A stretch of 64,000 nt of DNA from Terriglobia bacterium (lineage in GTDB: Bacteria > Acidobacteriota > Terriglobia > Bryobacterales > Bryobacteraceae), in assembly GCA_021325175.1 (NCBI GenBank), contig JAJPHS010000127.1:12909-76908 (forward strand), in the 5' to 3' direction. Every line of letters begins with the position of its first letter. Position 1 is the first letter of the stretch. The notes beneath the pieces were generated by a model, which had not been told where the DNA came from, did no database searches, and saw only the letters and a list, made by a program, of their open reading frames with translations. Of the stretch, positions 1,781 through 54,508 are shown piece after piece. The position numbers were made by a program, and so were the translations under genes.

Positions 1781-1925
1781 TAAGCCGGGGAGGAAACTCC
1801 CACCAAAGCGAGACTAACCTCATTAAAGACCCCTGAAGCAAACCTCCCCGGCGCCCCTCTGGGGTACCCGTTTCTAAAGAGGTTCAGGCGGTTTGAGGTA
1901 CCCGGAAACTGCTATTATCAGGCAA
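1781..1925 (+). ncRNA. Candidate structured 5' leader / cis-regulatory RNA upstream of dxr (class unknown)
   Basis: 10-bp perfect helix GCCGGGGAGG (1784-1793) / CCTCCCCGGC (1843-1852). Competing local hairpin GGGAG-GAAA-CTCCC (1788-1801). CCCC-TCT-GGGG hairpin (1854-1864). GGGTACC (1862-1868) can pair with GGTACCC (1897-1903). Confidence 0.3.
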
Positions 1926-3128: not shown

Positions 3129-3134
3129 CCGACT

Positions 3135-4448
3135 ATGGTCTTTTTGCAAAATGTCTGGTGGTTCCTGGTTCTGATCGGAGTGATGATCCTGCTCCATGAG
3201 CTAGGCCACTTTGTCGTTGCCAGGCTGTTCGACGTGAAAGTGGAAACTTTCAGTTTTGGCTTTGGCCCGCGGCTTTTCGGATTCAAACACGGCGAGACCG
3301 ATTTCCGTTTTTCCGCGCTGCCGATTTTAGGCGGCTACGTCAAAATGGCGGGCGATCAACCCGGAGAAGAAGCCACCGATCCGCGCAGTCTCATCGCCAA
3401 GCCGCGATGGCAGCGGTTGCTGATCACGCTGGCCGGTCCCGCGGTGAACGTGATCCTCGCCGTGATTTTGCTCACCGGGCTGTTCATGGAGCATTACCCC
3501 AAAGTGCCGACGCCACCCGATCCCGCGGTGGGATATCTGGCTCCCGATGGCGCCGCGGCGAAAGCCGGGATTCATGAAGGCGACCGCGTAGTGCAAGTGG
3601 ACAATGTCACCGATCCGAATTGGGAAGACATCGCCATGAAGGAGATGGCCAGCGCCGGACGTCCGATGCAGGTTTGGGTTTTGCGCGACGGGCAGCGGCT
3701 GCATTTCACAATCATCCCCACGCTCGATCAAAAGGACGGGATCGGCGTCGCCGGATGGGGCCAGCAAACCGAGGTTCAGGTGGGCAGCGTGGCGCCGGGG
3801 ACGGAAGCGCAGCGGGTGGGACTTCAGCGCGGCGATGTTCTGTTGAGCGCCAACGGCGAGCCGCTGCGATCGGTCTCGCGGCTCTATGAAATCGAGAAGG
3901 CCACCGAAGGGAAGCCGATCCAGCTTGAATACTCCCGCAAGGGCCAAATCCACCGTGTGATGGTCACGCCGGTGAAGAGCGAAGTGGATGGCCAGCAGCG
4001 CTGGATGATCGGCCTGACCGTGGAGTCGCGGATCGAAATCACCAAGCTGCCGTTTCTCGCGGCCGTGAAGGAATCCTGGCGCTGGAATATGCAAAGCGCC
4101 AAGATGATTTTTCAGTTCCTTGAAGGCATGCTGGAGCGGCGCATGTCGCCGAAATCGCTGGTGGGCCCGGTGGGGATCGCCGCGATGTCGGGCGAAGCGG
4201 CTCGCGAAGGGGCGGCTTCCTACTTCAGCCTGATGGCGGCCGTGAGCCTGAATCTGGCCATCTTCAACCTGCTTCCCATTCCGATCCTCGACGGCGGCGT
4301 GATTATGATGCTGCTGGTGGAAATGCTCATGCGGCGCGAGCTCGATCTGAAGGTGAAGGAAGCGGTGGTGAAGGTCGGCTTCGTGTTTCTGATGATGGTC
4401 GTTGTATTCGTGATTTACAACGACATTTCGAAAATCTTGCCAGGCTGA
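3135..4448 (+). CDS. rseP: RIP zinc metalloprotease RseP (site-2 protease)
   Basis: HELGHFVVARLF (HExxH) in the first TM segment, central PDZ-like region, C-terminal NLLPIPILDGG motif. The dxr-rseP order is classical. Confidence 0.92.
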   Translation: MVFLQNVWWFLVLIGVMILLHELGHFVVARLFDVKVETFSFGFGPRLFGFKHGETDFRFSALPILGGYVKMAGDQPGEEATDPRSLIAKPRWQRLLITLAGPAVNVILAVILLTGLFMEHYPKVPTPPDPAVGYLAPDGAAAKAGIHEGDRVVQVDNVTDPNWEDIAMKEMASAGRPMQVWVLRDGQRLHFTIIPTLDQKDGIGVAGWGQQTEVQVGSVAPGTEAQRVGLQRGDVLLSANGEPLRSVSRLYEIEKATEGKPIQLEYSRKGQIHRVMVTPVKSEVDGQQRWMIGLTVESRIEITKLPFLAAVKESWRWNMQSAKMIFQFLEGMLERRMSPKSLVGPVGIAAMSGEAAREGAASYFSLMAAVSLNLAIFNLLPIPILDGGVIMMLLVEMLMRRELDLKVKEAVVKVGFVFLMMVVVFVIYNDISKILPG

Positions 4449-21348: not shown

Positions 21349-22320
21349 ATGATAGACACGCCCAGCAAGAAGATTATCCTATTGACGCCACGGGGGTTCT
21401 GCGCCGGCGTGGTACGCGCGATCGATGTAGTGAGGATCGCGCTCGATCTCTATGGCGCTCCCATATACGTGCGCAAGGAGATTGTCCATAATCGCCATGT
21501 CGTGGACGAATTGCGCGGCGCAGGCGCCATTTTCGTTGAGGAGCTGGACGAAGTTCCCGAAGGCGCCCGGGTGATTTTCAGCGCTCATGGAGTGTCGCCG
21601 GCCGTGCGCGCGCAAGCCAGGCAGCGGCGGCTGCAAGTGATCGACGCCACCTGCCCGCTGGTCACCAAGGTTCATCTGGAAGCCGTCAAGTTCGCCAAAA
21701 AAGGGTACACGATCGTTTTAATCGGGCACAAAGACCACGACGAGGTCATCGGCACGCTGGGTGAGGCGCCGGAGTCGACCGTGCTGGTTTCAACCGTCGA
21801 GGACGTGGATCGGCTGGAGGTTCGCGATCCCGGGCGCGTTTCCTTCATTACCCAGACGACGCTAAGTTTGGATGAAACCAAGGACATCGTCGAGCGGCTC
21901 CGGCAGCGTTTTCCCGAGATCCAGGGGCCGGCCGCGCAGGATATCTGCTATGCGACCGAGAACCGCCAGCTTGCGGTCAAGGCGGTGGTTCCGCTGTGCC
22001 AGGTGCTGCTGGTGGTCGGCTCCCAGAACAGTTCCAATTCGCGGCGGCTGGTGGAAGTTTGCGAAAAAATGGGCGTGCCCGCTTACTTAATCGATGATTT
22101 ACGCGAGGTCCGGCCGGAATGGCTGGACGGCGTGCGTACGGTCGCGGTAACGGCGGGGGCTTCCGCGCCGGAGAACCTGGTTCAGGAATTGATCGGGTCG
22201 CTCAAAGAGCAAGGGTTCGGCCAGTTGGAGGAGATGGAAATTAAAGAAGAGGACGTGAGATTCCATCTTCCGTCGGATCTGGCCAAGACGGTGCAACTGC
22301 AAACTGCAACTCGCGTATGA
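21349..22320 (+). CDS. ispH: 4-hydroxy-3-methylbut-2-enyl diphosphate reductase
   Basis: PRGFCAGVVRAI, ATCPLVTKVH and VVGSQNSSNS motifs (three cluster Cys regions). Confidence 0.94.
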   Translation: MIDTPSKKIILLTPRGFCAGVVRAIDVVRIALDLYGAPIYVRKEIVHNRHVVDELRGAGAIFVEELDEVPEGARVIFSAHGVSPAVRAQARQRRLQVIDATCPLVTKVHLEAVKFAKKGYTIVLIGHKDHDEVIGTLGEAPESTVLVSTVEDVDRLEVRDPGRVSFITQTTLSLDETKDIVERLRQRFPEIQGPAAQDICYATENRQLAVKAVVPLCQVLLVVGSQNSSNSRRLVEVCEKMGVPAYLIDDLREVRPEWLDGVRTVAVTAGASAPENLVQELIGSLKEQGFGQLEEMEIKEEDVRFHLPSDLAKTVQLQTATRV

Positions 22321-22387
22321 GGATGCAAGGGGCGGCGCGGGCCATCGTATTTTTGGGCCCGCGAATTCGAGTCAAGAGCGCGGCGGG

Positions 22388-24310
22388 ATGTTTATGAGTC
22401 CTGGCGTACAGATCGCGGATCCGTTGGTGAGCGCCTGCGCGGAGGCGCAGCGGCGGGCGGCGAATTATCTGCTCGGGCTGCAACACGCCGACGGCTACTG
22501 GTGGGCGGACCTCACCGCGGACACCACGCTCGAATCCGATTTTATTTTGCTCGAGCTGTGGCGGCATCCGCCGGTGGACGGCATTTGGAATCCGCCGACG
22601 CGGGAATTAATCGACAAGGCGGCGCGATCGATCCTCGAGCGGCAGCTGCCCGATGGCGGATTCAATATCTACGCCGAAGGTCCATCGGAGCTCAACGCCA
22701 CGATCAAGGCATATACGGCTTTAAAGCTGGCGGGGATGTCCGAACACGATCCCAGCCTGGCTCGGGCGCGGGAGCGTATCCTGGCGCTCGGGGGATTGCA
22801 GCGCGCCAACTCCTATGTCAAGGTCAATCTAAGCCTGTTCGGGCTTTATCCGCGCGAGCACACTCCGTCCATTCCCCCGGAATTGATGCTGCTCGGCAAC
22901 TTTATCTACCAGATGTCGAGCTGGACGCGCGCCATTGTGATTCCGCTGTCGATCGTGCACGCCATGAATCCGCGGCGGCCGGTCCCGGCCGGATTTTCGC
23001 TTAACGAATTGTTCAAACCCGGCGAGCCGTTCGAATTTCCCAACAACGAAGGCTTTTTCAGTTGGCGAAATTTTTTCCTGAAAGCCGACAAAGTTTTCAA
23101 ATTCGCCGAAAAACGCATGTGGCGCGGCCTGCGGACCACGGCCATCCGCCGCGCCGAACAGTGGATGCTGGAGCGCACCCGCTACACCGACGGTCTGGCG
23201 GCGATCTATCCGCCGATGATGTACGTCATCATGGCGCTCGACCTTTTGGGCTACCCGAAGGATCATCCCGACGTGAAGGAAGCCGAGCGGCAGTTCTTCA
23301 ATCTGCTGGTGGATGACGAGCGCGGCTTCTACTTCCAGCCCTGTTTTTCGGTGGTGTGGGACACCGCGATCGCGGCGTTCGCGCTCGGCGAATCGAAACT
23401 GGCGCCCGACGCCGCATTGACCCGCTGCGCCGACTGGCTGCTGACCAAGGAAGTGCGGCGCCGCGGCGACTGGACCGTGAAGCGCCCCAACGTGCCGCCC
23501 TCTGGCTGGTATTTCGAGTTTGCCAACGAATGGTATCCCGATATCGACGATACGGCGCAGGTTCTACTGGCGTTGAGCCGCGCCCGCGCATCGAGCGGCC
23601 ACGACGCCTGCGTGCGGCGCGCCTTGACCTGGCTGCTGGCGATGCAATCGAAAGACGGGGGCTGGGCCGCTTTCGACGTGGATAATAACTGGCAGTCGCT
23701 CAGCGCGGTTCCCTTCGCGGACCATAATGCGATGCTCGATCCGACCTGCCCGGATATTACGGGACGCGTTCTCGAGGGGCTGATCGCATCGGGCGTCGAG
23801 CGCGATCACGCGGCCATCCGGCGCGGAGTTGCGTATCTAAAGCGCGCCCAGGAAGCCGACGGAAGCTGGTACGGGCGCTGGGGCGTCGATTATATTTACG
23901 GCACCTGCTTCGCGCTGCGCGGGCTGCGCGCGGCGGGCGAGAGCGACCGCGAGGCCTACATTTTGCGCGCCGGCGAGTGGCTGCGATCGATTCAGAACGC
24001 CGATGGCGGCTGGGGCGAGAGCTGCGCTTCCTACGATCGGAAGACGTTTGTGCCGGCCGCATCGACTCCCTCGCAAACCGCCTGGGCGATTTCCGGGCTG
24101 ATCGCCGGCGGCGACACCACCAGCAACAGCCTGCACAAAGGAATCGAGTACCTGATCGAAACGCAGCGGAAAGACGGCGGATGGGATGAGAAATTGTCCA
24201 CCGGAACCGGCTTTCCCGGCGTTTTTTATCTGAAATATCACTATTATCGACATTCGTTTCCGGTCCTGGCGTTATCGGACTATTTGAGAACGAGAAATGG
24301 GGCCAAATGA
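22388..24310 (+). CDS. shc: Squalene-hopene cyclase
   Basis: 640 aa. DIDDTAQV (DxDD catalytic motif) and repeated QW-type motifs (QxxDGGW / QNADGGWGE). Confidence 0.96.
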   Translation: MFMSPGVQIADPLVSACAEAQRRAANYLLGLQHADGYWWADLTADTTLESDFILLELWRHPPVDGIWNPPTRELIDKAARSILERQLPDGGFNIYAEGPSELNATIKAYTALKLAGMSEHDPSLARARERILALGGLQRANSYVKVNLSLFGLYPREHTPSIPPELMLLGNFIYQMSSWTRAIVIPLSIVHAMNPRRPVPAGFSLNELFKPGEPFEFPNNEGFFSWRNFFLKADKVFKFAEKRMWRGLRTTAIRRAEQWMLERTRYTDGLAAIYPPMMYVIMALDLLGYPKDHPDVKEAERQFFNLLVDDERGFYFQPCFSVVWDTAIAAFALGESKLAPDAALTRCADWLLTKEVRRRGDWTVKRPNVPPSGWYFEFANEWYPDIDDTAQVLLALSRARASSGHDACVRRALTWLLAMQSKDGGWAAFDVDNNWQSLSAVPFADHNAMLDPTCPDITGRVLEGLIASGVERDHAAIRRGVAYLKRAQEADGSWYGRWGVDYIYGTCFALRGLRAAGESDREAYILRAGEWLRSIQNADGGWGESCASYDRKTFVPAASTPSQTAWAISGLIAGGDTTSNSLHKGIEYLIETQRKDGGWDEKLSTGTGFPGVFYLKYHYYRHSFPVLALSDYLRTRNGAK

Positions 24311-25419
24311 GAGTACCGCTGGGGCAGGTCGCCGACATGGCGGCCTACATCGCGAAAAATAAACTGCGTCCAAAGCCGGAGTGGCAGCGAAACCTGGCCG
24401 CGGACGATTCGGCAAATCCCTTTAAGATCATTCACACCCAGATCCCCTCGGCGCGCGCCGGGCGCAAACCGCATCCGATGATCAACAAACGGTTTCCACT
24501 GGTAATGATGCTGGAGCCGCTGCACGCCTGCAATCTGACCTGCACCAGCTGCGGGCGGATTCGCGAGTACGAATCGACCGTGCGGGAGCGCTTGACGCTG
24601 GAGCAGTGCTTGCGCGCGGTGGATGAGTGCGGCGCGCCTCTGGTTTCAATCTGCGGAGGCGAGCCGCTGCTTTATCCCGAAATCGGTCCGCTGGCGGCCG
24701 CGATTTTGCAGCGCGGAAAATACATTCAGCTTTGCACTAACGGCATGTTTATTGCAAAAAAGTTGAAGGAATTCAAACCCGATAACGCCTTCGTGTTTAA
24801 CGTTCACCTCGACGGGATGGAGAAGAATCACGATCTCGCCGTCGAGCGGCCGGGCGTGTTTCGCGAGGCCATCGAGGGCGTAAAGGCCGCCAAAGCCGCC
24901 GGCTTCAAGGTTTTCTCGAATACCACCGTCTACAAAGAAACCGACATGCGCGAGATCGAGGAGCTGTTCGAGTACCTGGCGCAGTTCAAAGTAGACGGCC
25001 ACACCATCGCGCCGGCGTATGGATATTCGGCGGTGAATGATCGCGAGATTTTCCTGACTCGCGAGGATGTGCACGAGAAGTTCAAGTCCATCGACAAGCT
25101 TTCGAAGAAATATCCGATCGTCGCCTCGCCGGTGTACATGGAGTTTTTAAAGGGCGAGCGGGATCTGCCGTGCACTGCCTGGGGCAATCCGACGTATAAC
25201 GTTAAGGGCTGGAAGGGTCCGTGTTATTTGATCACCGACGCCCATTACGACACGTTCGAAGAGCTGATGACGCGGACGCCCTGGGAAAATTACGGAGCGG
25301 GCAATGATCCGCGGTGCGCCGATTGCATGGTGCATTGCGGATACGAGCCCTCGGCGGCGTACGGCATTAATTCGAAGTTCAGCGATCCGTTTAAATCGCT
25401 GGCGTGGCTGCTGAGTTAA
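24307..25419 (+). CDS. hpnH: Adenosyl-hopene transferase HpnH (radical SAM)
   Basis: ATGA overlap with the shc stop. CNLTCTSCGRI radical-SAM CxxxCxxC motif. C-terminal Cys-rich PRCADCMVHCGYEP. Confidence 0.9.
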   Translation: MRVPLGQVADMAAYIAKNKLRPKPEWQRNLAADDSANPFKIIHTQIPSARAGRKPHPMINKRFPLVMMLEPLHACNLTCTSCGRIREYESTVRERLTLEQCLRAVDECGAPLVSICGGEPLLYPEIGPLAAAILQRGKYIQLCTNGMFIAKKLKEFKPDNAFVFNVHLDGMEKNHDLAVERPGVFREAIEGVKAAKAAGFKVFSNTTVYKETDMREIEELFEYLAQFKVDGHTIAPAYGYSAVNDREIFLTREDVHEKFKSIDKLSKKYPIVASPVYMEFLKGERDLPCTAWGNPTYNVKGWKGPCYLITDAHYDTFEELMTRTPWENYGAGNDPRCADCMVHCGYEPSAAYGINSKFSDPFKSLAWLLS

Positions 25420-25426
25420 CTCGCGT

Positions 25427-26398
25427 GTGAAACCCGTTTTGGTGACCGGCGCGACGGGGTTTGTCGGATGGCATGTCGCGCGGACGCTTTTGAATCGCGG
25501 CGATATGGTTCGCGTGCTGGCGCGCGATCCAAAACGAGTGCGCGAGCTGGATGGAGCCGAAATCGCGCGCGGCGATTTGCGCGATTCGGATTCGCTCAAG
25601 CGGGCGGTGGCGGGCTGCGCCGTGGTCTATCACGTCGCGGCGGATTACCGGCTGTGGACGCGCGAGCCGCGGGAAATGTTCCGCTCCAACGTGGACGGAA
25701 CCCGAGCCCTGCTTGATGCCGCTCGCGCCGCGGGAGTCGAGCGCGTGGTTTATACCAGCACGGTCGGATGCATCGGCATTCCAGAGAGCGCCATCGGCGA
25801 TGAGGATACGCCGGTTTCGATCGCGGAAATGAACGGGCCGTATAAAAAATCGAAATTTCTGGCCGAGCAGATCGCGCGCGAAAAGACGGATTTGCCGGTG
25901 GTGATCGTCAATCCCACCGCGCCGGTCGGGGATCACGATTTTAAGCCGACGCCGACAGGAAGAATCGTCGTCGATTTCCTGCGCGGGAAGATGCCGGGAT
26001 TCGTCGATACGGGTTTGAATGTGGTGGACGTTCGCGATGTCGCCGAGGGGCACTTGCTGGCTTGCGAGCGCGGGCGAGCCGGGGAGCGGTACATTTTGGG
26101 GTCGGAAAATCTGACTTTAGAGGAGATTTTCAGGAAATTGGCGGAAATTGCCGGCCGGCCGGCGCCGAAAATCCGCGTGCCTTACCCGCTGGCATATGCT
26201 TATGGCGCGGTTTCCACGGCCTGGGCGAGCGTGACCGGACGCGAGCCGCTGGCGCCGCTGGACGCGGTGAGAATGTCACGAAAAAGGATGTGGGTGCGTC
26301 ATGACAAAGCCGCGCGGGATCTCGGATATTCGCCGGGTCCGGCGCAGGCGGCGCTGAAGCGGGCGGTCGAGTGGTTCCGCGCCAATGGCTACTGTTAA
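25427..26398 (+). CDS. hpnA: Hopanoid-associated sugar epimerase HpnA (SDR family)
   Basis: VLVTGATGFVGWHV, HVAADYRLW, YKKSKFLAEQ and KPTPTGRIVVDFL. Close to my recollection of the HpnA family pattern. Confidence 0.85.
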   Translation: MKPVLVTGATGFVGWHVARTLLNRGDMVRVLARDPKRVRELDGAEIARGDLRDSDSLKRAVAGCAVVYHVAADYRLWTREPREMFRSNVDGTRALLDAARAAGVERVVYTSTVGCIGIPESAIGDEDTPVSIAEMNGPYKKSKFLAEQIAREKTDLPVVIVNPTAPVGDHDFKPTPTGRIVVDFLRGKMPGFVDTGLNVVDVRDVAEGHLLACERGRAGERYILGSENLTLEEIFRKLAEIAGRPAPKIRVPYPLAYAYGAVSTAWASVTGREPLAPLDAVRMSRKRMWVRHDKAARDLGYSPGPAQAALKRAVEWFRANGYC

Positions 26399-27020
26399 AA
26401 CGTGGCTGCTGGTGGCGGCCGAGCGGCGCGAGTTTGATGGAATCTTGGAGCGTTTCGGCGCATCTGAAAGATTAAACTGGCCGGTGGAGTTCGCCTGCGA
26501 GGCGCATTATCGGGGTGACCGCTACGTGATGGTCGCCAATGGTCCGGGCCGAAGGTTGGCCGGGAAAGCTTTGGAGAAAAGAATCGACGTGGACGGGATT
26601 GTCAGCACGGGATTTTGCGGAGCGCTTGATCCGGCTTTAAGGGTGGGCGATGTTGTCACGGATGCGGGTGCGGTTTATTGCGTTGATCGCGTGATTGTCA
26701 GCGCCGCCGAGAAGCGCGCGCTGCGGGAAACAACCGGTGCGGCGGCGGTCGATATGGAATCCGCCGCCGTGGCGGCCAAGGCCGCCGAATGGGGCGTCCC
26801 ATTTCACTTCATTCGCGCCGTTTCCGACGCCGCCTGCGACGATATGCCGCTCGATTTCAATTTATACCGCGACCCGCAGGGCCGCTTTTCCCGCGGGCGC
26901 ATTACGCTGGCGGCGCTGGCCCGGCCTTTTATGCGGGTTCCCGCTTTGCTACGCTTGGATCGCAACACGAAGATCGCCGCGCGATCGTTAGGGGCTTATT
27001 TTGCTGACTGCCGACTCTAG
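26385..27020 (+). CDS. hpnG: Hopanoid-associated phosphorylase/nucleosidase HpnG
   Basis: PNP/UDP-1 family features (STGFCGAL, VDMESAAVA, IRAVSD). Position directly after hpnA. Confidence 0.75.
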   Translation: MATVKTWLLVAAERREFDGILERFGASERLNWPVEFACEAHYRGDRYVMVANGPGRRLAGKALEKRIDVDGIVSTGFCGALDPALRVGDVVTDAGAVYCVDRVIVSAAEKRALRETTGAAAVDMESAAVAAKAAEWGVPFHFIRAVSDAACDDMPLDFNLYRDPQGRFSRGRITLAALARPFMRVPALLRLDRNTKIAARSLGAYFADCRL

Positions 27021-27057
27021 CCGCATCACCGTTCGCGCTCCCCGGACGCCCCGCCAA

Positions 27058-28140
27058 ATGCGGGCGGCCGTGTACAAAGGCGCGGGCGTGATTGAAGTGG
27101 ACACGCTGCCGGTGCCCGAAATCGCAGCGGGAGAAATTCTGATTCGCGTTGAAACCTGCGGGATTTGTCACACCGACCTCAAAAAAATCGAATACAATTT
27201 ACTGCCGCCGCCGCGAATTTACGGTCATGAAACCGCCGGCGTAGTCGCGGCCGTGGGCGAAAATGTCACGCGATACCGGCCCGGCGATCGGGTCATCGTG
27301 TTTCATCACATTCCTTGCGGCCAATGTTTTTATTGCGAAAAGAAACTTTACGCGCAGTGTCCGGTCTATAAGAAGGTGGGCGTGACCGCGGGATACGAGC
27401 CGGCGGGCGGCGGATTTTCGCAGTATGTGCGCGTGATGGACTGGATCGTCGAGCAGGGCCTAGAAAAGATTCCCGAAGGAGTCTCCTTCGACGCGGCCTG
27501 TTTTGTCGAGCCGGTGAATACCTGCCTCAAGGGAGTCAAGCTGATCGATCCGCGGCCGGGCGACGCGATCGCGATTTTAGGCCAGGGTCCCATCGGGCTG
27601 ATTTTCACCATGATTGCCGCTCGCACCGGAGCGCGGGTAATTGCAACCGATACAATGGCCGCGCGGCGCGAGCTGGCGCGGCGGTTCGGCGCCCAGGAAG
27701 TCTTCGATCCGCGCGACGAGAATTTCGAAAAAACCGCGCGGGCAATGACCTCCGGCCGCGGGCTCGATTTGGCGATCGTCGCCGCATCGGCCCGCGGAAT
27801 TGTCGAGCAGGCGGTGCGGGCATCGCGGCCCGGCGCGCGAATTTTGCTGTTTGCGCAGACCTCGCATCAGGAGCGTATCGAGGTTTCCGGCGCCGACATT
27901 TGCATGGGCGAACGGGTTTTGTGCGGCTCCTACAGCGCCTCCGTCGACCTGCAACGGGAATCGGCCGATTTGGTTTTCAGCGGGGCGCTGCCGGTGGAAA
28001 AGCTGATTTCTCACCGCTTTCCGCTGCCCCGGATTCAGGAGGGAATCGACCGCGCGTTGCATCCGGACGAACAATCGTTGAAGATAGTAATTAAGCCGCA
28101 ACTCGACTCATCCGAGGACAGTAAAGCGAGGATCAAATGA
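27058..28140 (+). CDS. Zn-dependent alcohol/polyol dehydrogenase (MDR family)
   Basis: Catalytic Zn ligands in ETCGICHTDL and GHETAG. Structural Zn site CGQCFYCEKKLYAQC. GxGxxG as LGQGPIGL. The track ORF opens at 27001, but ATG 27058 (MRAAVYKG) fits the family N-terminus. Confidence 0.85.
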   Translation: MRAAVYKGAGVIEVDTLPVPEIAAGEILIRVETCGICHTDLKKIEYNLLPPPRIYGHETAGVVAAVGENVTRYRPGDRVIVFHHIPCGQCFYCEKKLYAQCPVYKKVGVTAGYEPAGGGFSQYVRVMDWIVEQGLEKIPEGVSFDAACFVEPVNTCLKGVKLIDPRPGDAIAILGQGPIGLIFTMIAARTGARVIATDTMAARRELARRFGAQEVFDPRDENFEKTARAMTSGRGLDLAIVAASARGIVEQAVRASRPGARILLFAQTSHQERIEVSGADICMGERVLCGSYSASVDLQRESADLVFSGALPVEKLISHRFPLPRIQEGIDRALHPDEQSLKIVIKPQLDSSEDSKARIK

Positions 28141-29179
28141 GCCAGCACATGACGGCTGCGGTGCTGTATGGAAAAGAGCACTTGCAGATCGAACGGGTCG
28201 ATGTGCCCCGCATTGGGCCGGCGACGTGCTGGTGCGCGTGCGCGCAGCGTTAACCTGCGGAACCGACGTGAAGGTTTTTCGCCGCGGATATCATGCGCGG
28301 ATGATCGTCCCGCCGGCCCTGTTCGGGCACGAGCTGGCCGGCGATATCGTAGAAATGGGCGCGGATGTTCGCGGATTCAAGCTCGGCCAGCGCGTGGTGG
28401 CGGCCAATTCGGCGCCCTGCGGGCAGTGCTTTTTTTGCCGGCGCGGGCAGGACAATCTGTGTGAGGATCTGCTGTTCAACAACGGCGCCTACGCCGAATA
28501 TATTCGCATTCCGCAGCGCATCGTCGAGAAAAATATGTACGAGGTGCCCGAGCACGTCTCCTATCAGGACGCGGCGCTGGTGGAGCCGCTCGCCTGCGTG
28601 CTGCGCGGCCTGGAGGAATCCGGGGTGCGGGAGGGCGATACCATCGCCATCATCGGCCTGGGGCCCATCGGGATGATGTTCGTACGCCTGGCCAAGGCAG
28701 TCTACGGCGCGCGCGTGATCGCCGTCGGGCGCCGCCAGCCGCAGCTCGATCGGGCGCGGAAGATGGGCGCCGATGAAGTGGTGATCAACAGCGAAGGCGC
28801 GGACGCGCTCGGCGCGGTTCACGAAATCACCGGCGGGCACGGCGCCGACGTGGTGATTGAAGCGGTGGGTTTGCCGGAAGTGTGGCAGCTCGCAATCAAG
28901 ATGCTGCGCCGCGGGGGCGTGGTGAATTTTTTCGGCGGCTGCCCGAGCGGAACCGAAATCCGGCTCGACACCAATCTGCTGCATTATTCCGAACTGACCT
29001 GCAAGGCGAGTTTTCATCACACGCCGGCGCTGATCCGCAAAGCGCTGGAGATCGTGACGCGCGGCTATGTTTCGGCCAAGGATCTGGTAAACCGGGTCGA
29101 GCCGCTGGCCAATCTGCTCGAGGTGATGCAGCACCTGATGAGTCACAACGGACATTTGAAGACGGCGATCATTCCGTAG
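28137..29179 (+). pseudogene. Second Zn-dependent alcohol/polyol dehydrogenase, interrupted by an apparent 1-nt deletion near 28220 (or a sequence error)
   Basis: ATG 28137 (ATGA overlap with the upstream stop) encodes MSQHMTAAVLYGKEHLQIERVDVPRIGP, then hits a stop. The conserved continuation GDVLVRVRAALTCGTDVK... is in the frame of track ORF 28226..29179. The junction falls in CCGG(G)CGAC. Confidence 0.7.
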
Positions 29180-29182
29180 GCC

Positions 29183-30094
29183 GTGTTTCTCCCGCCGGTT
29201 TCTTTTCTCAAATCCGATGGTGCCAGGCGCTGCTGGAATCTTGACGAATCGCTCCGGTACACGCGCTGGCTGGCGACGCATCACTACGAAAATTTCCACG
29301 TCGTAAGTTTTCTTTTGCCCAAGCGCCTGCATCAGGATTTTTATAACGTCTACTCGTTTTGCCGCTGGGCGGACGATTTAGGCGACGAACTCGGCGACAC
29401 GGCCGAGAGCCTGAAGCAGCTAGCCTGGTGGCGCGCGGAGCTGCACAGGATGTACGCCGGGTCGGCTTCTCACCCCGTCTTCGTCGCTTTGCAGGGAACT
29501 GCGGCGCGCCATGCACTGCCGGTTGAGCCGTTCGACGATCTGATCACCGCGTTCGAGCGCGATCAGACCAAAACTCGTTATCGCGACTGGGACGAAGTGT
29601 TTGAATACTGCAAGTATTCGGCGAATCCGGTGGGACGGCTGGTGCTGGGACTTTGTGGATACCACGATGCAAAAAGATACGAACTCTCCGATGCGACCTG
29701 CACCGCCCTTCAGCTTGCCAACTTCTGGCAGGATGTAACCATCGATTGGGAAAAAGACCGCGTGTATCTTCCGCTTCACCTGTTCGAGCAGCACGGCTGC
29801 CCGCTCGAGGCGATCGCGCAGAGAATATACGATGAGCGATTTCGCGCGGTGATGAAGGACGCGGTCGAGGTCGCGCGCGGGCTGTTTTTAAAAGGCCTGC
29901 CGCTGGCGGAAATGGTCAGCCGGAGGCTCGCCATCGATGTTGAGCTGTTCAGCCGCGGCGGGATGAAAGTGCTCGAAAAGATCGAGCGCCAGGGTTACAA
30001 CGTGCTGGCCGCGCGGCCGGCGATTTCGAAAGTAGAGCGGATCGCTTTGCTGCTCGGCGCCATCCGCCGCCGGGCATTTTCACGCGCGGCATGA
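29183..30094 (+). CDS. hpnC: Squalene synthase HpnC (hydroxysqualene synthase)
   Basis: HYENFHVVSFLLPKRL and CRWADDLGDE (Asp-rich motif), phytoene/squalene synthase fold. Lies next to hpnD. Confidence 0.85.
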   Translation: MFLPPVSFLKSDGARRCWNLDESLRYTRWLATHHYENFHVVSFLLPKRLHQDFYNVYSFCRWADDLGDELGDTAESLKQLAWWRAELHRMYAGSASHPVFVALQGTAARHALPVEPFDDLITAFERDQTKTRYRDWDEVFEYCKYSANPVGRLVLGLCGYHDAKRYELSDATCTALQLANFWQDVTIDWEKDRVYLPLHLFEQHGCPLEAIAQRIYDERFRAVMKDAVEVARGLFLKGLPLAEMVSRRLAIDVELFSRGGMKVLEKIERQGYNVLAARPAISKVERIALLLGAIRRRAFSRAA

Positions 30095-30933
30095 ACGTCG
30101 AGAAATCCTATGCCTGGTGCGCTCGCCTGGCGCGGTCACAGGCCAAGAATTTTTATTATTCCTTTCTTTTGCTGAGCCCGGAAAAGCGGCGGGCGATGTG
30201 CGCCATCTACGCTTTTATGCGCTACTGCGACGACCTGAGCGACGCCGAGGGCATAGCCGATCGCGCCGCAGCGATTGCGAAATGGGAGCAGGACTTGCGC
30301 GCCGCGCTCGATGGCGCGGCTCCGGAGCATCCGCTATGGCCGGCCTTCGCCGACGCCGCGGCGCGTTTTAATATTCCGCGGCGCTATTTCTTCGAAATGA
30401 TCAAGGGCGTCAGCTCCGATCTCGAGCCGCGCAGGATCCAAACCTTCGACGAGCTGTACGATTACTGCTACCATGTGGCCAGCGTCGTGGGCCTGACGAT
30501 CATTCATATTTTTGGCTTCGATGGCGAAGACTCGCTGGATCTTGCCGAAAAATGCGGTGTTGCGTTTCAGTTGACGAATATTTTGCGCGACATCGGCGAG
30601 GATGCCGCGCGCGGCCGGGTGTACTTGCCGGCCGAGGATTTTCGAAAATTTGGCGTCTCGCCGGAGACGTTTGAGCCGCGCGAGAAATTTTTGGAACTGA
30701 TGGCCTTTGAAGCCGGGCGGGCGCGCCGCTATTACCGCGAATCGGCGCCACTGATCGGGCGAATCCACGCCTCCAGCCGGGCTTCGCTGCGCGCGCTGAT
30801 CGGAATCTACTCGCGCCTGCTGGAGCGGATTGTCGAATCGAACTACGACGTGCTCGAGCGGCGCATTCGCGTGCCGAACTGGGAAAAAATCCGGGTGCTG
30901 GTGGCGGCGCGCTGGGGAGTCAAACCCGTATGA
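30091..30933 (+). CDS. hpnD: Presqualene diphosphate synthase HpnD
   Basis: ATGA overlap with hpnC. NFYYSFLLL, YAFMRYCDDLSD and NILRDIGEDAARGRVYLP motifs. Confidence 0.88.
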   Translation: MNVEKSYAWCARLARSQAKNFYYSFLLLSPEKRRAMCAIYAFMRYCDDLSDAEGIADRAAAIAKWEQDLRAALDGAAPEHPLWPAFADAAARFNIPRRYFFEMIKGVSSDLEPRRIQTFDELYDYCYHVASVVGLTIIHIFGFDGEDSLDLAEKCGVAFQLTNILRDIGEDAARGRVYLPAEDFRKFGVSPETFEPREKFLELMAFEAGRARRYYRESAPLIGRIHASSRASLRALIGIYSRLLERIVESNYDVLERRIRVPNWEKIRVLVAARWGVKPV

Positions 30934-31802
30934 AAATCGCATTCCTGGGATTGGGAAAAATGGGCGCGGGCATGGCCCGCAATTTAATCCGCGCCGGGCA
31001 CGAGCTGACGCTTTATAACCGCAGTATCGAAAAAGCGCGAGAGATCACGGGCGCGCGCGTGGCGGATTCTCCGGCCGAGGCCTGCCGCGATGCGGAAGCG
31101 GCCATTTCCATGCTCGCCGACGATCACGCGGTGGAGGTTGTCGTTTGCGGCGACCGCGGGATCGCGGCCGGACTCCCGGAAGGCGCGGCGCACATCTGCT
31201 CCGCCACCATCAGCACCGCCATGGCGCGGCGCCTCACCGCGCTTCATGAGAACCGGCGCCAGGCTTATCTCAGCGCGCCGGTGTTCGGACGTCCCCAGGC
31301 GGCGGAGGCCAAGAAGCTGATCGTCGTTCCGGCCGGATCGCGCGAGCGGATCGAAAAATTCGAGCCGCTGTTTGAGGCCATAGGAGGCGCCACGTTCATT
31401 GCTGGCAGCGAGCCGTGGCAGGCGAACGCGGTTAAGCTGTGCGGCAATTTCATGATCGCGTCGATGCTCGAAGCGTTTAGCGAAGCCTTCGCGACGCTGC
31501 GCAAGGCCGGGGTCGATCCCGGCAAATTCCTGGAGATTGTGAACGCGCTTTTCCAGTCTCCTGTTTATGCCAATTACGGCCAGCTCATTGTCGAGGAAAA
31601 ATTCGAGCCGGCCGGATTTGCACTCAAGCTGGGTCTAAAGGACGTGCGGCTGGTGCTTCAAACCGCCGAAGAGATGGCTTCGCCCATGCCGCTGGCCAGC
31701 GCCATTCGCGATCGTTTCCTGGAGGCGATGGCTCATGCGCAGGCGGAAATGGATTGGTCGAGCGTGGCCAAATCAGCGGCACGGCAGGCCGGTCTGACCT
31801 GA
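30930..31802 (+). CDS. NAD(P)-dependent oxidoreductase, HIBADH/6-phosphogluconate dehydrogenase-like, translationally coupled to hpnD
   Basis: ATGA overlap with the hpnD stop. Rossmann motif FLGLGKMGAGMA. 290 aa. Paralogous in type to 742..1638. Confidence 0.85.
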   Translation: MKIAFLGLGKMGAGMARNLIRAGHELTLYNRSIEKAREITGARVADSPAEACRDAEAAISMLADDHAVEVVVCGDRGIAAGLPEGAAHICSATISTAMARRLTALHENRRQAYLSAPVFGRPQAAEAKKLIVVPAGSRERIEKFEPLFEAIGGATFIAGSEPWQANAVKLCGNFMIASMLEAFSEAFATLRKAGVDPGKFLEIVNALFQSPVYANYGQLIVEEKFEPAGFALKLGLKDVRLVLQTAEEMASPMPLASAIRDRFLEAMAHAQAEMDWSSVAKSAARQAGLT

Positions 31803-35564: not shown

Positions 35565-35640
<76 letters not shown>

Positions 35641-35950: not shown

Positions 35951-35982
35951 ATTTCCACAGCTTGTGGAAATCTTGTGGGAAT
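35951..35982. promoter_or_regulatory. Cluster of three DnaA-box-like 9-mers directly upstream of dnaA (autoregulation and/or oriC element)
   Basis: ATTTCCACA (35951-35959), GCT, TGTGGAAAT (35963-35971) form a perfect 21-bp palindrome. TGTGGGAAT lies at 35974-35982. Compare the consensus TTATCCACA. Confidence 0.55.
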
Positions 35983-36006
35983 TTTGTTGTCGGGGAGCGA
36001 TTGAAA

Positions 36007-37347
36007 ATGACGGAAAGCGTAACGACAGCGGCAGTGACGAATCCGGCCAATGAGTGGGAGCGCATTAAGACCATTCTGGCCCGGAAAATCAGCCCGCAAT
36101 CGTATCAGAACTGGGTCGTGCGCACTTCTTTTGAAGGATTCGATTCGGGGGTGGTCCGGGTCAGCGTTCCGGACCAGGTGACCAAGGAGTTCATGGAGCA
36201 GGAGTACGCTGAAGAGGTGCGGTCGGCGGCGCGCGAGCTGAATCTGCACATCGAGTGTGTGCGGTACATCCCGAAACCGGCGCATTTTTCGGCGCCCGCC
36301 GAAAGCGCGGAACCGATTTTTGGCTCGGCCGTGAGCCACATCAATCCGCGATTTGACTTCAAGAATTTCGTCGTCGGTTCCTGCAATCAGTTTGCGCACG
36401 CGGCCGCCAAAGCCGTGGCGCACACTCCCTCGCGCAGTTATAACCCGCTGTTCCTTTATGGCGGAGTCGGCGTGGGAAAAACGCACTTGATGCATGCCAT
36501 CGGACGCGAGCTGCTGGAGCGCTATCCGGCGATGCGAATCGTCTACACCTCGAGCGAGCGGTTTATGAACGAGATGATCACTTGCGTGAAATCTGAGCGG
36601 ATGCCGGCCTTTCATCGGCATTACCGGTCGGCTGACGTGCTGCTGGTGGACGATATCCAGGTGCTCGCCGGCAAGGAGCGAACGCAAGAGGAGTTTTTTC
36701 ATACCTTCAACGAGCTCTACGACCACCAGAAGCAGATCGTGATTTCAAGCGACTCCGCGCCGAAAAGCACGCCGGGATTGGTGGAGCGGCTGCGATCGCG
36801 CTTCGAATGGGGTCTGATGGTCGATATCCAGCCGCCGGATCTCGAAACCAAGATGGCGATCCTCGATAAAAAAGCAGAGCAGGAAGGGGTCCATCTGCCG
36901 GAGGATGTGCGAAACTACATCGCAACAAAAACGAAGTCGAATGTTCGGGAGCTTGAAGGAGCGCTGCTCAAGCTGGTCGCGTATTCGGAAGTAACCGGAT
37001 CGGCGATTACGCTTCCGATGGCGCAGCAGGTGCTCAAATATCTGATTCCGACGGGAGAAAAACGAATCACCATGGATGCGGTGCTGCGCGCGGTGGCCGA
37101 AAAGTTCCAGTTGCAGCCGGCCATGCTGAAGCAAAAAACCAATGCGCGGCACATCGCTTATCCGCGGCAGGTGGCGATGTATTTGATTAAGGAGCTAACG
37201 CAATCCTCGCTGCCGGAAATCGGGCGTATGTTCGGCGGCAAACATCACACCACAGTGCTTCATTCGGTGCAGAAGATCGACCGGCTGCGCCGCGAGGACG
37301 CGGAAGTGAACAGACTCATCCACAGCGTAATCGATTCGATTCATTGA
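36007..37347 (+). CDS. dnaA: Chromosomal replication initiator DnaA
   Basis: Walker A LYGGVGVGKTHLMHAIG, DDIQVLAGKERTQEEFFHTFN and C-terminal DNA-binding HTTVLHSVQKI. The track ORF starts at TTG 35962 inside the DnaA boxes; ATG 36007 is preferred. Confidence 0.97.
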   Translation: MTESVTTAAVTNPANEWERIKTILARKISPQSYQNWVVRTSFEGFDSGVVRVSVPDQVTKEFMEQEYAEEVRSAARELNLHIECVRYIPKPAHFSAPAESAEPIFGSAVSHINPRFDFKNFVVGSCNQFAHAAAKAVAHTPSRSYNPLFLYGGVGVGKTHLMHAIGRELLERYPAMRIVYTSSERFMNEMITCVKSERMPAFHRHYRSADVLLVDDIQVLAGKERTQEEFFHTFNELYDHQKQIVISSDSAPKSTPGLVERLRSRFEWGLMVDIQPPDLETKMAILDKKAEQEGVHLPEDVRNYIATKTKSNVRELEGALLKLVAYSEVTGSAITLPMAQQVLKYLIPTGEKRITMDAVLRAVAEKFQLQPAMLKQKTNARHIAYPRQVAMYLIKELTQSSLPEIGRMFGGKHHTTVLHSVQKIDRLRREDAEVNRLIHSVIDSIH

Positions 37348-38747: not shown

Positions 38748-41231
<2,484 letters not shown>

Positions 41232-54410: not shown

Positions 54411-54478
54411 TATTGCGATTGTAAGGCGTGAGGAGCGCGCCGGGCAATCGTAATATTCAGACCTTCTTATCTGTATAC

Positions 54479-54508
54479 TTGACAGAATTCGGGCACGCTG
54501 CATACGCT
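54479..54508 (+). promoter_or_regulatory. Putative promoter of tRNA-Met
   Basis: TTGACA (54479-54484), 18-nt spacer, TACGCT (54503-54508), about 10 nt before the tRNA 5' end. Confidence 0.4.

Follow-up and report, generated by a model that had tools for sequence, protein, structure and literature searches.

A conserved pair of zinc-dependent medium-chain dehydrogenases inside the hopanoid gene cluster of Terriglobia, with a tentative role in side-chain redox chemistry

Two adjacent genes for zinc-dependent medium-chain dehydrogenases, here called MDR1 and MDR2, lie inside the hopanoid gene cluster of a soil acidobacterium of the Terriglobia, between hpnG and hpnC, and this placement is real and highly conserved. 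The association of the genes with the cluster is not new, having been published in 2017 under the names ug1 and ug2. From motifs and gene neighbourhood it is tentatively proposed that the pair may act as a redox couple on the ribose-derived C5 side chain of hopanoids, a reading that we regard as possible rather than probable.

The window (the whole 64,000-nucleotide stretch of Terriglobia contig JAJPHS010000127.1 that was analysed) carried a block of genes, all on the + strand, in the order ispH-shc-hpnH-hpnA-hpnG-MDR1-MDR2-hpnC-hpnD. The order was assigned by NCBIfam and Pfam profile matches and agrees with that given in a sequence-only reading of this DNA. The features were as follows.

21349..22320, + strand, ispH (HMBPP reductase), which opens the conserved block; NCBIfam NF002189, 461 bits, above cut-off
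22388..24310, + strand, shc, squalene-hopene cyclase; TIGR01507, 643.6 bits
24307..25419, + strand, hpnH, adenosylhopane synthase (radical SAM); TIGR03470, 413.8 bits
25427..26398, + strand, hpnA, hopanoid-associated SDR ("sugar epimerase"); TIGR03466, 467 bits
26385..27020, + strand, hpnG, PNP/UDP-family phosphorylase, adenine removal from adenosylhopane; TIGR03468 and Pfam PF01048
27058..28140, + strand, MDR1, 360 aa, Zn-dependent medium-chain dehydrogenase with NAD-type cofactor motif; PF08240 and PF00107
28137..29179, + strand, MDR2, 347 aa when intact, Zn-dependent medium-chain dehydrogenase with NADP-type motif; PF08240 and PF00107 on ORF 28226-29179
28218..28219, + strand, frameshift at codon Pro28 of MDR2; CC here, CCC in near-identical contigs
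29183..30094, + strand, hpnC (hydroxysqualene synthase), GTG start; TIGR03464, 339 bits
30091..30933, + strand, hpnD (presqualene diphosphate synthase); top match TIGR03465, 261 bits, slightly below cut-off 278.6
30930..31802, + strand, HIBADH / tartronate-semialdehyde-reductase-like NAD(P) dehydrogenase; matches to TIGR01505 and TIGR01692 fall far short of their cut-offs

For hpnG the top NCBIfam match was TIGR03468 (HpnG), whose cut-off of 187 bits it misses with a score of 133.7. The gene 3' of hpnD is, by its NCBIfam matches, HIBADH-like and not hpnE; it overlaps hpnD by ATGA and was present as an accessory only in the closest relatives (L001, L004, L005, L011). The junctions quoted in the sequence-only reading were all found in the sequence: ATGA overlaps at shc/hpnH, MDR1/MDR2 (28137-28140) and hpnC/hpnD, a 14-nt overlap of hpnA and hpnG, and a gap of 3 nt between the MDR2 stop and the hpnC GTG. 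MDR1 had been begun at 27001, where its longest ORF starts with TTG. The exact start at ATG 27058 was shared by 55 of 120 called homologues and upstream extensions differed in length; judged by this comparison, ATG 27058 is most likely the true start, which leaves a 37-nt spacer after hpnG in place of the overlap implied by TTG 27001.

Both proteins matched PF08240 (GroES-like) and PF00107 (Rossmann) above the gathering score and, on their domains, intact ligands and closest structures, are Zn-dependent MDRs of the polyol/threonine-dehydrogenase type, as had been read earlier. The zinc-site and four-Cys motifs quoted before are present in each (CGICHTD, GHETAG and CGQCFYC...C in MDR1; TCGTD, GHELAG and CGQCFFC...C in MDR2). 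The predicted catalytic zinc ligands are Cys37/His57/Glu58/Glu151 in MDR1 and Cys41/His65/Glu66/Glu150 in MDR2, with structural Cys87/90/93/101 and Cys95/98/101/109, respectively, and they align with those of 4ej6 and the P. horikoshii threonine dehydrogenase (TDH). MDR1 has the Rossmann motif GQGPIG and Asp198 after beta-2, which is the NAD type, and MDR2 has GLGPIG and the NADP-type motif Gly198-Arg199-Arg200; the two proteins are 29% identical. Motif conservation in MDR1 was scored across 81 orthologues, and zinc ligands and structural Cys4 were kept in 79-81 orthologues of MDR1/MDR2; the GxGxxG motifs are likewise conserved among orthologues. The top solved-structure match of both MDRs was a putative Zn-binding dehydrogenase of S. 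meliloti (4ej6/4ejm; E 1e-37 and 3.5e-44), and the closest PDB structures of MDR1 further included threonine dehydrogenases, a ketose reductase and sorbitol dehydrogenase (DH).

Neither protein reached the NCBIfam cut-off of a named equivalog (Tdh, IolM, GatD, IdnD, sorbitol/L-iditol 2-dehydrogenase); the top scores were 172.5/158.7 bits for IolM (cut-off 450) and 154/162.6 bits for Tdh (cut-off 458), with others lower. Homologues are named L-iditol 2-dehydrogenase by JGI. The two-domain fold and the Cys/His/Glu catalytic zinc site are shared with the polyol dehydrogenase/ketose reductase branch (1pl6 sorbitol DH, 1e3j whitefly NADP-ketose reductase, 7y9p xylitol DH, 3m6i L-arabinitol 4-DH, 4a2c galactitol-1-P 5-DH) at E 1e-25 to 1e-38, but identity is just ~30-35% and below all curated equivalog cut-offs. 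Enzymes of this branch oxidise their substrates, free polyols or polyol phosphates, at C2, and we know of none that acts on a lipid-linked polyol. Tdh (2d8a, 2dfv, 2dq4) is likewise among the top NCBIfam/PDB matches and has the four-Cys structural zinc and the CGTD motif seen in MDR2; the MDR scores of 154-163 bits are nevertheless far from cut-offs of 380-458, and the hopanoid locus has no kbl partner, a context other than threonine catabolism. The closest annotated relative of MDR2, WP_242323970.1 of Rhodococcus opacus pLPS8, is 45% identical, keeps the ANSAPC and F-x-NGA motifs and is encoded in a DeoR / FGGY-kinase / class-II-aldolase polyol operon, and a 35% identical homologue on S. meliloti pSymA is a single gene in a sugar ABC uptake/catabolism operon. 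Unlike MDR1-MDR2, both are unpaired and have no linkage to isoprenoid genes.

Synteny was scored in 80 species-level Terriglobia genomes with MDR1 identity of 67-82%. MDR1 was followed by MDR2 in 78/78 species genomes, hpnG stood directly 5' of MDR1 in 69 of 70, and hpnC or hpnD stood directly 3' of MDR2 at all 73 of 73 species loci. The block was retained in 80/80 genomes and in more distant clades, while its flanks were scrambled, any one flanking gene family being common to at most 12 loci among the 80 species. Median identity was 71% for MDR1 and 74% for MDR2 versus 43% for HpnG, the least conserved protein of the block. The same block was found in SD1 Acidobacteriaceae (identity ~50%) and at most metagenomic loci, and MDR1 and MDR2 were adjacent at all loci with room (134/134). 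At related loci ispH also stood upstream of shc and hpnH lay within the block at only part of them; at hopanoid-type loci hpnA was immediately 5' of hpnG or of MDR1. Co-conservation with hpnG/hpnH, as expected in the sequence-only reading, therefore held in relatives (Terriglobia and the distant clades), but an MDR homologue was found at 0/7 non-acidobacterial hpnH loci (Alpha- and Betaproteobacteria, Streptomyces).

In the published description (Sinninghe Damsté et al. 2017, Front Microbiol 8:968, PMC5462960), ug1 is a ~370-aa Zn-dependent alcohol dehydrogenase after hpnA-hpnG and ug2 a ~350-aa Zn-binding alcohol dehydrogenase before hpnC (Table S1), both recorded for Acidobacteria of SD1 and SD3; their function was called "not established" and none was proposed. 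By position, size and family, MDR1 matches ug1 and MDR2 ug2, and the defining order and sizes were found in the window, in the 80 genomes and at SD1 loci. The 2017 paper placed ug1 and ug2 in separate clusters, whereas here they were always adjacent, and its SD3 clusters were without ug2 beside hpnC, whereas the Bryobacterales loci here have it. The same paper put forward hpnA for the step from ribosylhopane to bacteriohopanetetrol (BHT); the literature to August 2026 still leaves this enzyme unassigned (PMC12583986; PMC13459092), as the sequence-only reading had held.

The preferred reading runs as follows. Gene identity, intact motifs, pairing and conserved placement in the operon are shown directly; what the enzymes act on, which way each reaction runs and any connection with BHT are inferred. 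In Terriglobia the pair would be transcribed and translationally coupled inside the hopanoid operon, between hpnG and hpnC, and would act on the ribitol-like C5 side chain that is the product of HpnH and HpnG. With NADPH, MDR2 would reduce a side-chain carbonyl, which may be the C-35 aldehyde of ribosylhopane in its open-chain form, so that BHT results, or else a 34-keto intermediate; with NAD+, MDR1 would oxidise a side-chain hydroxyl or lactol. The cell-free activity that converts ribosylhopane to BHT was reportedly found by Bodlenner in 2015 to be NADPH-dependent. The pocket would see only the pentose/pentitol head, the hopane tail remaining outside, which would explain orthologues with the same motifs acting on free pentose/pentitol in hopanoid-free relatives; recognition of a C4-C5 polyol head agrees with the polyol operon of the closest annotated MDR2 relative. 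The side-chain module may have been recruited from an ancestral free-pentose/pentitol couple, and it could also yield keto, lactone or 34-epimeric bacteriohopanepolyols (BHPs). Against a side-chain role, BHT needs just one reduction, yet two enzymes of opposite cofactor type are conserved, and among annotated proteins the closest relatives are soluble enzymes of polyol catabolism.

The sequence-only reading had proposed an aldose-to-alditol type reductase. Such NADPH-dependent chemistry is that of aldose/xylose reductases and the MDR2 motif is of the NADP type, but those enzymes are aldo-keto reductases, a separate superfamily with a (beta/alpha)8 barrel and no zinc; no such barrel domain was found in MDR1 or MDR2, for which Pfam gave MDR-related domains only. 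Aldose reduction is usually carried out by aldo-keto reductases, and enzymes of this MDR subfamily typically work at C2, between a polyol hydroxyl and a ketose, and not on the aldose C1-aldehyde/alditol pair. Terriglobia synteny and the MDR2 cofactor motif speak for candidacy as ribosylhopane reductase; the pair in hopanoid-free Vicinamibacteria, the loci without hpnG and the 0/7 non-acidobacterial loci speak against it. The pair is linked to hpnH/hpnG in Terriglobia but not in BHT producers generally, C. thermophilum making BHT without ug2 (PMC5462960), and it occurs at loci without hpn genes (five in Vicinamibacteria and ~12 metagenomic). Its presence in relatives reported to be hopanoid-free weakens the idea that it is the BHT enzyme. 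Some role of the pair on the hopanoid side chain accordingly keeps a minority share of our confidence, and the exact role of ribosylhopane reductase is rather improbable; similarly low weight is given to a Terriglobia module in which MDR2 would be the NADPH-dependent ribosylhopane reductase and MDR1 an NAD+ side-chain dehydrogenase (lactol-to-lactone or C-34).

The occurrences of the pair away from hpnG or hopanoid genes bear on all readings. In Vicinamibacteria five loci carried orthologues of both genes side by side, equally diverged (47% and 53-55% identity) and unchanged in their active-site motifs, behind queF-(pro_dh); no hpn genes were found within 10 kb and the pair does not adjoin hpnCDE. 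This group (SD6) is reported to be without shc, hpnH, hpnG and hopanoids, and to retain hpnC/D/E (PMC5462960). At four of the five loci, nucleoside phosphorylase and transporter genes lay 5-10 kb from the pair, which parallels its position beside the nucleoside-phosphorylase homologue HpnG. About 12 metagenomic loci carried an orthologous pair with no hpn genes at the locus, and at L100 the pair was independent of hopanoid genes. An Armatimonadota MAG had the order MDR1-MDR2-(89 aa)-hpnC-hpnD-hpnE, with shc, hpnH and hpnG not found within 10 kb of the pair. A well-supported clade (type-b) had a mini-cluster ispH-hpnA-MDR1-MDR2-SQS, with a single SQS_PSY gene and no hpnG in between, and at L119 the pair accompanied hpnA-hpnG, yet hpnC/D were not downstream.

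A doubtful but serious alternative is that in all lineages the substrate of the pair is a small soluble compound (sugar, polyol or amino-alcohol) and never ribosylhopane, the pair either interconverting aldose/ketose and polyol or making a polyol head group or co-substrate; co-transcription with hopanoid genes would then be regulatory, or the product would feed the unusually polar, poorly extractable acidobacterial lipids. The identical motifs in hopanoid-free Vicinamibacteria and Terriglobia and the sugar/polyol operons of the closest annotated relatives favour it, and polyol pathways typically combine an NAD-type with an NADP-type enzyme. TarJ, an MDR, is an NADPH-dependent ribulose-5-phosphate reductase that with the cytidylyltransferase TarI makes CDP-ribitol. 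A parallel, as a lead only, is the MDR1 relative P0139, which is fused to a nucleotidyltransferase and suggests nucleotide activation of a polyol phosphate; its fused domain is PF00483/PF12804 and, unlike the TarI case, not IspD-like, no TarJ match was among the NCBIfam results for the MDRs and no cytidylyltransferase was found in the hopanoid block. Recovery of acidobacterial BHPs was ~10x higher when whole cells rather than extracts were processed, which implies head groups that are large and polar (PMC5462960). Neither a head group of this kind nor a soluble substrate is known, however, no conserved glycosyl- or phosphotransferase was found in the block, and this alternative gives no specific reason for a tight, ancient siting exactly between hpnG and hpnC.

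It is unlikely that the pair belongs as an accessory to the squalene module HpnC/HpnD/HpnE instead of to side-chain synthesis, serving a redox step or variant in squalene formation or use. The invariant position of MDR2 immediately 5' of hpnC or hpnD, the Armatimonadota order, the type-b mini-cluster and the retention of both the pair and hpnC/D/E in Vicinamibacteria would fit such a role, and ug2 was already called "somehow associated" with hpnCDE (PMC5462960). Every step from FPP to squalene is nevertheless assigned to HpnD, HpnC and HpnE (PMC7306690); proteobacterial and actinobacterial hpnCDE clusters are without the pair, C. thermophilum has hpnCDE without ug2, the Vicinamibacteria pairs are not beside these genes, the L119 pair has no hpnC/D downstream, and a polyol-type pocket with soluble polyol-catabolic relatives fits a C30 hydrocarbon alcohol poorly. 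Equally unlikely is the lack of any functional link, an ancestral housekeeping pair having been trapped in an early Terriglobia hopanoid cluster and kept by inertia. The independent pairs of Vicinamibacteria and L100 agree with this, and clade-specific contexts are compatible with few historical rearrangements, but the block is invariant among scrambled flanks, its junctions overlap or nearly so, and association with isoprenoid-lipid genes recurs in three arrangements and a second phylum.

The sequence-only reading took MDR2 as open through 28137-29179, but the window copy is split by a 1-nt deletion: the frame from ATG 28137 ends at TAA 28251-28253 and the rest lies in another frame (ORF 28226-29179). 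In DNA alignments one C is missing relative to L001, L004 and L005 (GGGCCCGGC versus GGG-CCGGC at 28218-28219). The deletion is probably an assembly error, because near-identical contigs from three other samples have intact MDR2; the gene is intact (347 aa) in L001, L002, L004 and L005. That the deletion and premature stop make MDR2 a true pseudogene in this strain, leaving MDR1 alone functional, is very unlikely, since the remaining ~1045 nt equal L004/L005 except for one or two substitutions, no further lesions were found, the deletion falls in a G/C run (GGGCCCGG) typical of consensus errors, and all other loci examined have intact MDR2.

In the core C35 hopanoid pathway, the conversion of ribosylhopane to BHT is the one step still to be assigned, and lipids of the BHT type belong to the major biomarkers used in geochemistry. 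In the light of the comparative data, experiments need to take the two genes together, with pentose/pentitol-type substrates and the Vicinamibacteria orthologues as control. Should one of the genes perform the step, a highly abundant phylum of soils would offer a definite candidate that is cheap to test, and the step would have been solved by different enzymes in different phyla; a role in the squalene module or in a polar head group would instead point to a part of membrane-lipid biosynthesis in acidobacteria that has so far gone unrecognised.

The tightly packed + strand gene order that the sequence-only reading had described around the two Zn-dependent medium-chain dehydrogenase genes (MDR1 and MDR2, between hpnG and hpnC) was recovered in NCBIfam and Pfam searches, with the flanking genes placed as follows.

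21349-22320, + strand, ispH
22388-24310, + strand, shc
24307-25419, + strand, hpnH
25427-26398, + strand, hpnA
26385-27020, + strand, hpnG (top NCBIfam match is the HpnG model at 133.7 bits, under its cut-off of 187)
29183-30094, + strand, hpnC
30091-30933, + strand, hpnD

The reported junctions were all seen in the sequence (ATGA at shc/hpnH, MDR1/MDR2 and hpnC/hpnD, a 14-nt hpnA/hpnG overlap and a 3-nt gap before hpnC), as were the quoted zinc motifs. The gene overlapping the hpnD stop via ATGA (30930-31802, +) encodes a HIBADH / tartronate-semialdehyde-reductase-like NAD(P) dehydrogenase and is not hpnE; this fourth oxidoreductase coupled to the block was found in the closest relatives only (homologous loci L001, L004, L005 and L011) and was absent from other species loci. 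The window cluster (21349-31802) is missing hpnE, and neither hpnE nor further hopanoid genes were found outside the block among the ten other large window ORFs tested. In the Armatimonadota locus and in loci of Acidobacteriaceae of acidobacterial subdivision 1 (SD1), hpnE lies right behind hpnD (L087 14284-15741; L088 14171-15604; L180 14974-16323). Scanning of 20.8-32.6 kb for promoter and terminator consensus gave counts at chance level, and Rfam and tRNA scans returned three tRNAs and nothing else. Elsewhere in the window the following features were located.

1893-4448, + strand, dxr (DXP reductoisomerase) and an rseP-type M50 protease gene
35565-35640, - strand, tRNA-Gly
35962-37347, ORF beyond tRNA-Gly, aligning with the DnaA gene of syntenic locus L001
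37593-38726, ORF beyond tRNA-Gly, presumed dnaN from position and size
38751-41231, ORF beyond tRNA-Gly, presumed gyrB from position and size
49535-54503, - strand, glycan-export-type cluster
56834-58687, mnmG/gidA

The alignment with the L001 DnaA gene places the hopanoid block ~4 kb from dnaA. The dxr and rseP-type genes lie ~17 kb upstream of the block, dxr being the window's second MEP-pathway gene besides ispH. In the glycan-export-type cluster, a glycosyltransferase of 796 aa combines several domains (GT2 + GT4/GT1); encoded with it are a methyltransferase of class I and a Wzt-type ABC ATPase carrying a carbohydrate-binding domain at its C-terminus.

Both MDR proteins carry PF08240 and PF00107 (Pfam) and share just 29% identity. 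In MDR1 the catalytic residues are Cys37/His57/Glu58/Glu151 and the structural ones Cys87/90/93/101; it also has GQGPIG and an Asp198 ending beta-2, which from general Rossmann-fold knowledge we read as an NAD-type signature; MDR2 has catalytic Cys41/His65/Glu66/Glu150, structural Cys95/98/101/109, GLGPIG and Gly198-Arg-Arg, which we likewise take for an NADP-type signature. These ligand and cofactor-motif features were kept in 79-81 orthologues. The top curated families were scyllo-inosose 3-dehydrogenase IolM and threonine dehydrogenase, with scores of 154-172 bits where the cut-offs are 380-458. Among solved structures the best match was 4ej6, an uncharacterised S. meliloti Zn-dehydrogenase, and the other top matches were archaeal threonine dehydrogenases, an NADP-ketose reductase and sorbitol, xylitol and arabinitol dehydrogenases. 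Family, structure and motif matches thus agree with the earlier description of polyol-type Zn dehydrogenases, and the scores and structures place both proteins in the polyol/TDH-type MDR branch with no characterised equivalog. They are ordinary members of a well-known superfamily. Identity as threonine dehydrogenase was rejected, the score being far under cut-off and the context not fitting. An AlphaFold2 model of MDR1 from a shallow protein alignment (A3) had a mean pLDDT of 49 and was unusable.

Two details of the gene models required revision. The start previously given for MDR1, TTG 27001, is not supported by homologue starts, which point to ATG 27058 as most probably the true one: the conserved M-x-A-A-V-Y is the exact start in 55 of 120 called homologues, N-terminal extensions being variable. 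This start would leave a 37-nt spacer behind hpnG. For MDR2 the junctions and motifs hold but a single open frame does not, since translation from the ATG at 28137 ends at a TAA (28251-28253) and the rest of the protein is encoded in a different frame by ORF 28226-29179. Aligned with the DNA of close relatives, the window is missing one C in GGGCCCGG (window 28218-28219), MDR2 otherwise differing from them by one or two substitutions. In contigs from three other samples with MDR1 100% identical to the window's (L004-L006), MDR2 is complete at 347 aa in L004 and L005, and in L006 the contig ends within it. A consensus error is the most likely source of the lesion; a very recent frameshift at strain level is less likely.

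Close homologues of MDR1 number in the thousands in Acidobacteriia and Bryobacteraceae assemblies. A species-representative scan gave at least 595 MDR1 matches; the 80 best of them, at 67-82% identity and from MAGs of Bryobacterales, Terriglobia and Acidobacteriaceae, were kept and annotated by tblastn with the window proteins. Within these best 80 of at least 595, and counting loci with room, MDR2 directly followed MDR1 in 78/78, hpnC or hpnD followed MDR2 in 73/73, and hpnG stood immediately 5' of MDR1 in 69/70, so that in Terriglobia the pair stays linked to hpnG. To control for shallow divergence, clustering was applied to every ORF of these loci; no family outside the ispH-to-hpnD block was common to more than 12 loci, and the flanks are therefore scrambled while the block is fixed. 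Median identities in the same loci were 71% for MDR1, 74% for MDR2, 70% for Shc, 74% for HpnH and 43% for HpnG, which puts the two MDRs roughly level with Shc and HpnH and well above HpnG. HpnG is by far the block's least conserved protein (minimum 29% identity, L007-L086). In SD1 Acidobacteriaceae the block is intact, with MDR1 ~50% and MDR2 ~54% identical to the window's, hpnE next downstream and hpnJ nearby. The hpnH gene lies within the block in only ~38 of ~60 related species loci with room (L014, L026 and L032 are examples without it), and in three loci from Acidobacteriaceae MAGs an HpnH-like but divergent radical-SAM gene (40-46% identity) lies upstream of ispH on the opposite, - strand (L067 3368-4264; L073 3402-4367; L082 3948-4844).

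The nearest non-Terriglobia clade for MDR1 is Vicinamibacteria, corresponding to subdivision 6 (SD6). In five loci the two genes are adjacent with their order unchanged; identities of 47% and 53-55% make them as close to the window's pair as the SD1 pair is, and no hpn genes were found within 10 kb in any of the five. The local unit is queF (PF14489, ~122 aa)-(pro_dh)-MDR1-MDR2, at ~8.4-12.2 kb in L089-L092, the proline dehydrogenase gene (PF01619) lying between queF and the MDR1-like gene in 4/5 loci. Nucleoside transporter and phosphorylase genes occur 5-10 kb upstream in 4/5; this divergent upstream cluster comprises nupC, pyrimidine-nucleoside phosphorylase, PNP and cdd. Published work describes cultured as well as environmental SD6 Acidobacteria as keeping hpnC/D/E and lacking shc, hpnH, hpnG and hopanoids (PMC5462960).

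Seeding a metagenome scan with distant MDR1-like sequences yielded 80 loci, whose identity to the closest of the MDR1 clade references (window MDR1 or the homologous proteins P0121 or P0122) was 48-78%. MDR2 followed MDR1 in 56/56. The upstream gene was hpnG in 32/45, hpnA without hpnG in 8/45 (type b) and neither in 5/45. Type b has the order ispH-hpnA-MDR1-MDR2-single SQS_PSY, with flanks unrelated by Pfam in L132. The pair of an Armatimonadota MAG (44% and 48% identity) is followed by hpnC-hpnD-hpnE, with no shc, hpnH or hpnG within 10 kb. A cyanobacterial MDR1-like protein (P0128, 43% identity) is encoded by a lone gene beside hetR/patX and was set aside as uninformative, having neither pair nor hpn genes. 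The diagnostic motifs of both proteins were identical across all genomic contexts compared. A neighbour-joining tree of MDR1-like proteins gave context clades at 60/60 (type b), 60/60 (Vicinamibacteria) and 32/60 (hpnG-adjacent) and left their branching order open, so the ancestral context of the pair cannot be inferred from it.

Co-conservation with hpnG/hpnH, which holds in Terriglobia, did not extend to the other hopanoid loci compared: no MDR1 or MDR2 homologue was found within 12 kb of seven non-acidobacterial hpnH loci (Roseomonas, Mycetohabitans, Streptomyces, Burkholderia, Methylobacterium, Azospirillum and Cupriavidus). In two of these organisms, Roseomonas marmotae p1318-3 (L093 4197-10565) and Mycetohabitans rhizoxinica pBRH01 (L094 1-3520), the hpn clusters are flanked by aepX-aepY-AEP aminotransferase genes, and the Roseomonas locus also has a phosphocholine-cytidylyltransferase-family gene, a CDP-alcohol phosphatidyltransferase gene and an LPG-synthase-domain gene, which suggests a link of phosphonolipid head-group genes to proteobacterial hopanoid loci.

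The specific interpretation of the sequence-only reading, that the pair supplies the reductase converting ribosylhopane to bacteriohopanetetrol (BHT), is only partly supported. Guilt by association with hopanoid genes inside Terriglobia is very strong; the step is the sole orphan redox step of the core pathway, comes right after HpnG and yields a ribitol-like polyol; and MDR2, judged by its cofactor motif, looks NADPH-dependent. Against a side-chain role, the pair predates the side-chain genes and can be separated from them, its active site appears unchanged in hopanoid-free Vicinamibacteria, squalene-synthesis genes are its recurrent neighbours outside Terriglobia, and two enzymes of opposite cofactor types are kept where a single reduction would do. 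BHT producers of other phyla lack the pair, and C. thermophilum makes BHT without the MDR2 gene, 'ug2' (PMC5462960). Action of the pair on the hopanoid side chain at all is put forward tentatively, and the narrower reading within it, MDR2 as the ribosylhopane reductase, is rather unlikely.

The MDR branch of polyol/TDH type usually works at C2 (polyol/ketose), and aldoses are usually reduced at C1 by aldo-keto reductases, although MDRs are capable of aldehyde reduction; an aldose-to-alditol reductase is therefore not the default chemistry of the fold. A soluble polyol or sugar, or the precursor of a head group, is a doubtful possibility as the substrate of the pair, one that draws on annotated relatives sitting in sugar and polyol operons. 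The top MDR2 homologue in annotated replicons, on Rhodococcus opacus pLPS8 (45% identity), shares the ANSAPC and F-x-NGA motifs and lies in a DeoR / Zn-dehydrogenase / class II aldolase unit with genes for an FGGY kinase and an MFS transporter alongside, an arrangement typical of operons for soluble polyol catabolism; an S. meliloti homologue (35% identity) is the last gene of a sugar ABC-transporter operon. In P0139 (602 aa; 4.2-kb Logan contig) an NTP_transferase domain (PF00483/PF12804) is followed, within one fusion protein, by an MDR1-like domain (40% identity), a possible hint that relatives could produce a phosphorylated polyol or sugar for subsequent nucleotide activation. The two operons and the fusion support a pocket for a small polyol or sugar head. 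A ribose-derived polyol as substrate would accommodate both the position beside hpnG and the nucleoside genes near the Vicinamibacteria pair, and is a partial unifier.

Service to the squalene module, also a partial unifier, suits three contexts (Terriglobia, type b and Armatimonadota) as well as the hpnCDE genes reported for SD6, but matches a polyol-type pocket poorly and is considered unlikely. It is equally improbable that the pair has no functional link to the hopanoid genes. Replacement of the missing hpnE by MDR2 was rejected as a main reading, SD1 and Armatimonadota loci carrying the pair plus hpnE.

The association of these genes with hopanoid genes is already published, 'ug1' (a Zn-dependent ADH of ~370 aa after hpnA-hpnG; MDR1) and 'ug2' (a Zn-binding ADH of ~350 aa before hpnC; MDR2) having been described in 2017 in SD1/SD3 Acidobacteria (PMC5462960). 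Sinninghe Damsté et al. gave their function as 'not established' and suggested hpnA for the conversion of ribosylhopane to BHT (PMC5462960). The earlier statement that this conversion has no assigned enzyme agrees with the literature to August 2026, papers of November 2025 and August 2026 describing the enzyme as not established or drawing the step as non-enzymatic (PMC12583986, PMC13459092). The literature searched contained no functional assignment of these ADHs past PMC5462960 and, as far as it shows, the ribosylhopane-reductase proposal for the pair is unpublished. New here are the depth of conservation of the pair, its occurrence outside hopanoid clusters and adjoining hpnCDE in a second phylum, the MDR2 frameshift in the window assembly, and the obligate MDR1-MDR2 pairing with cofactor motifs predicted to be complementary, NAD- and NADP-type. 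The MDR pair makes the question of how ribosylhopane is converted to BHT experimentally approachable.
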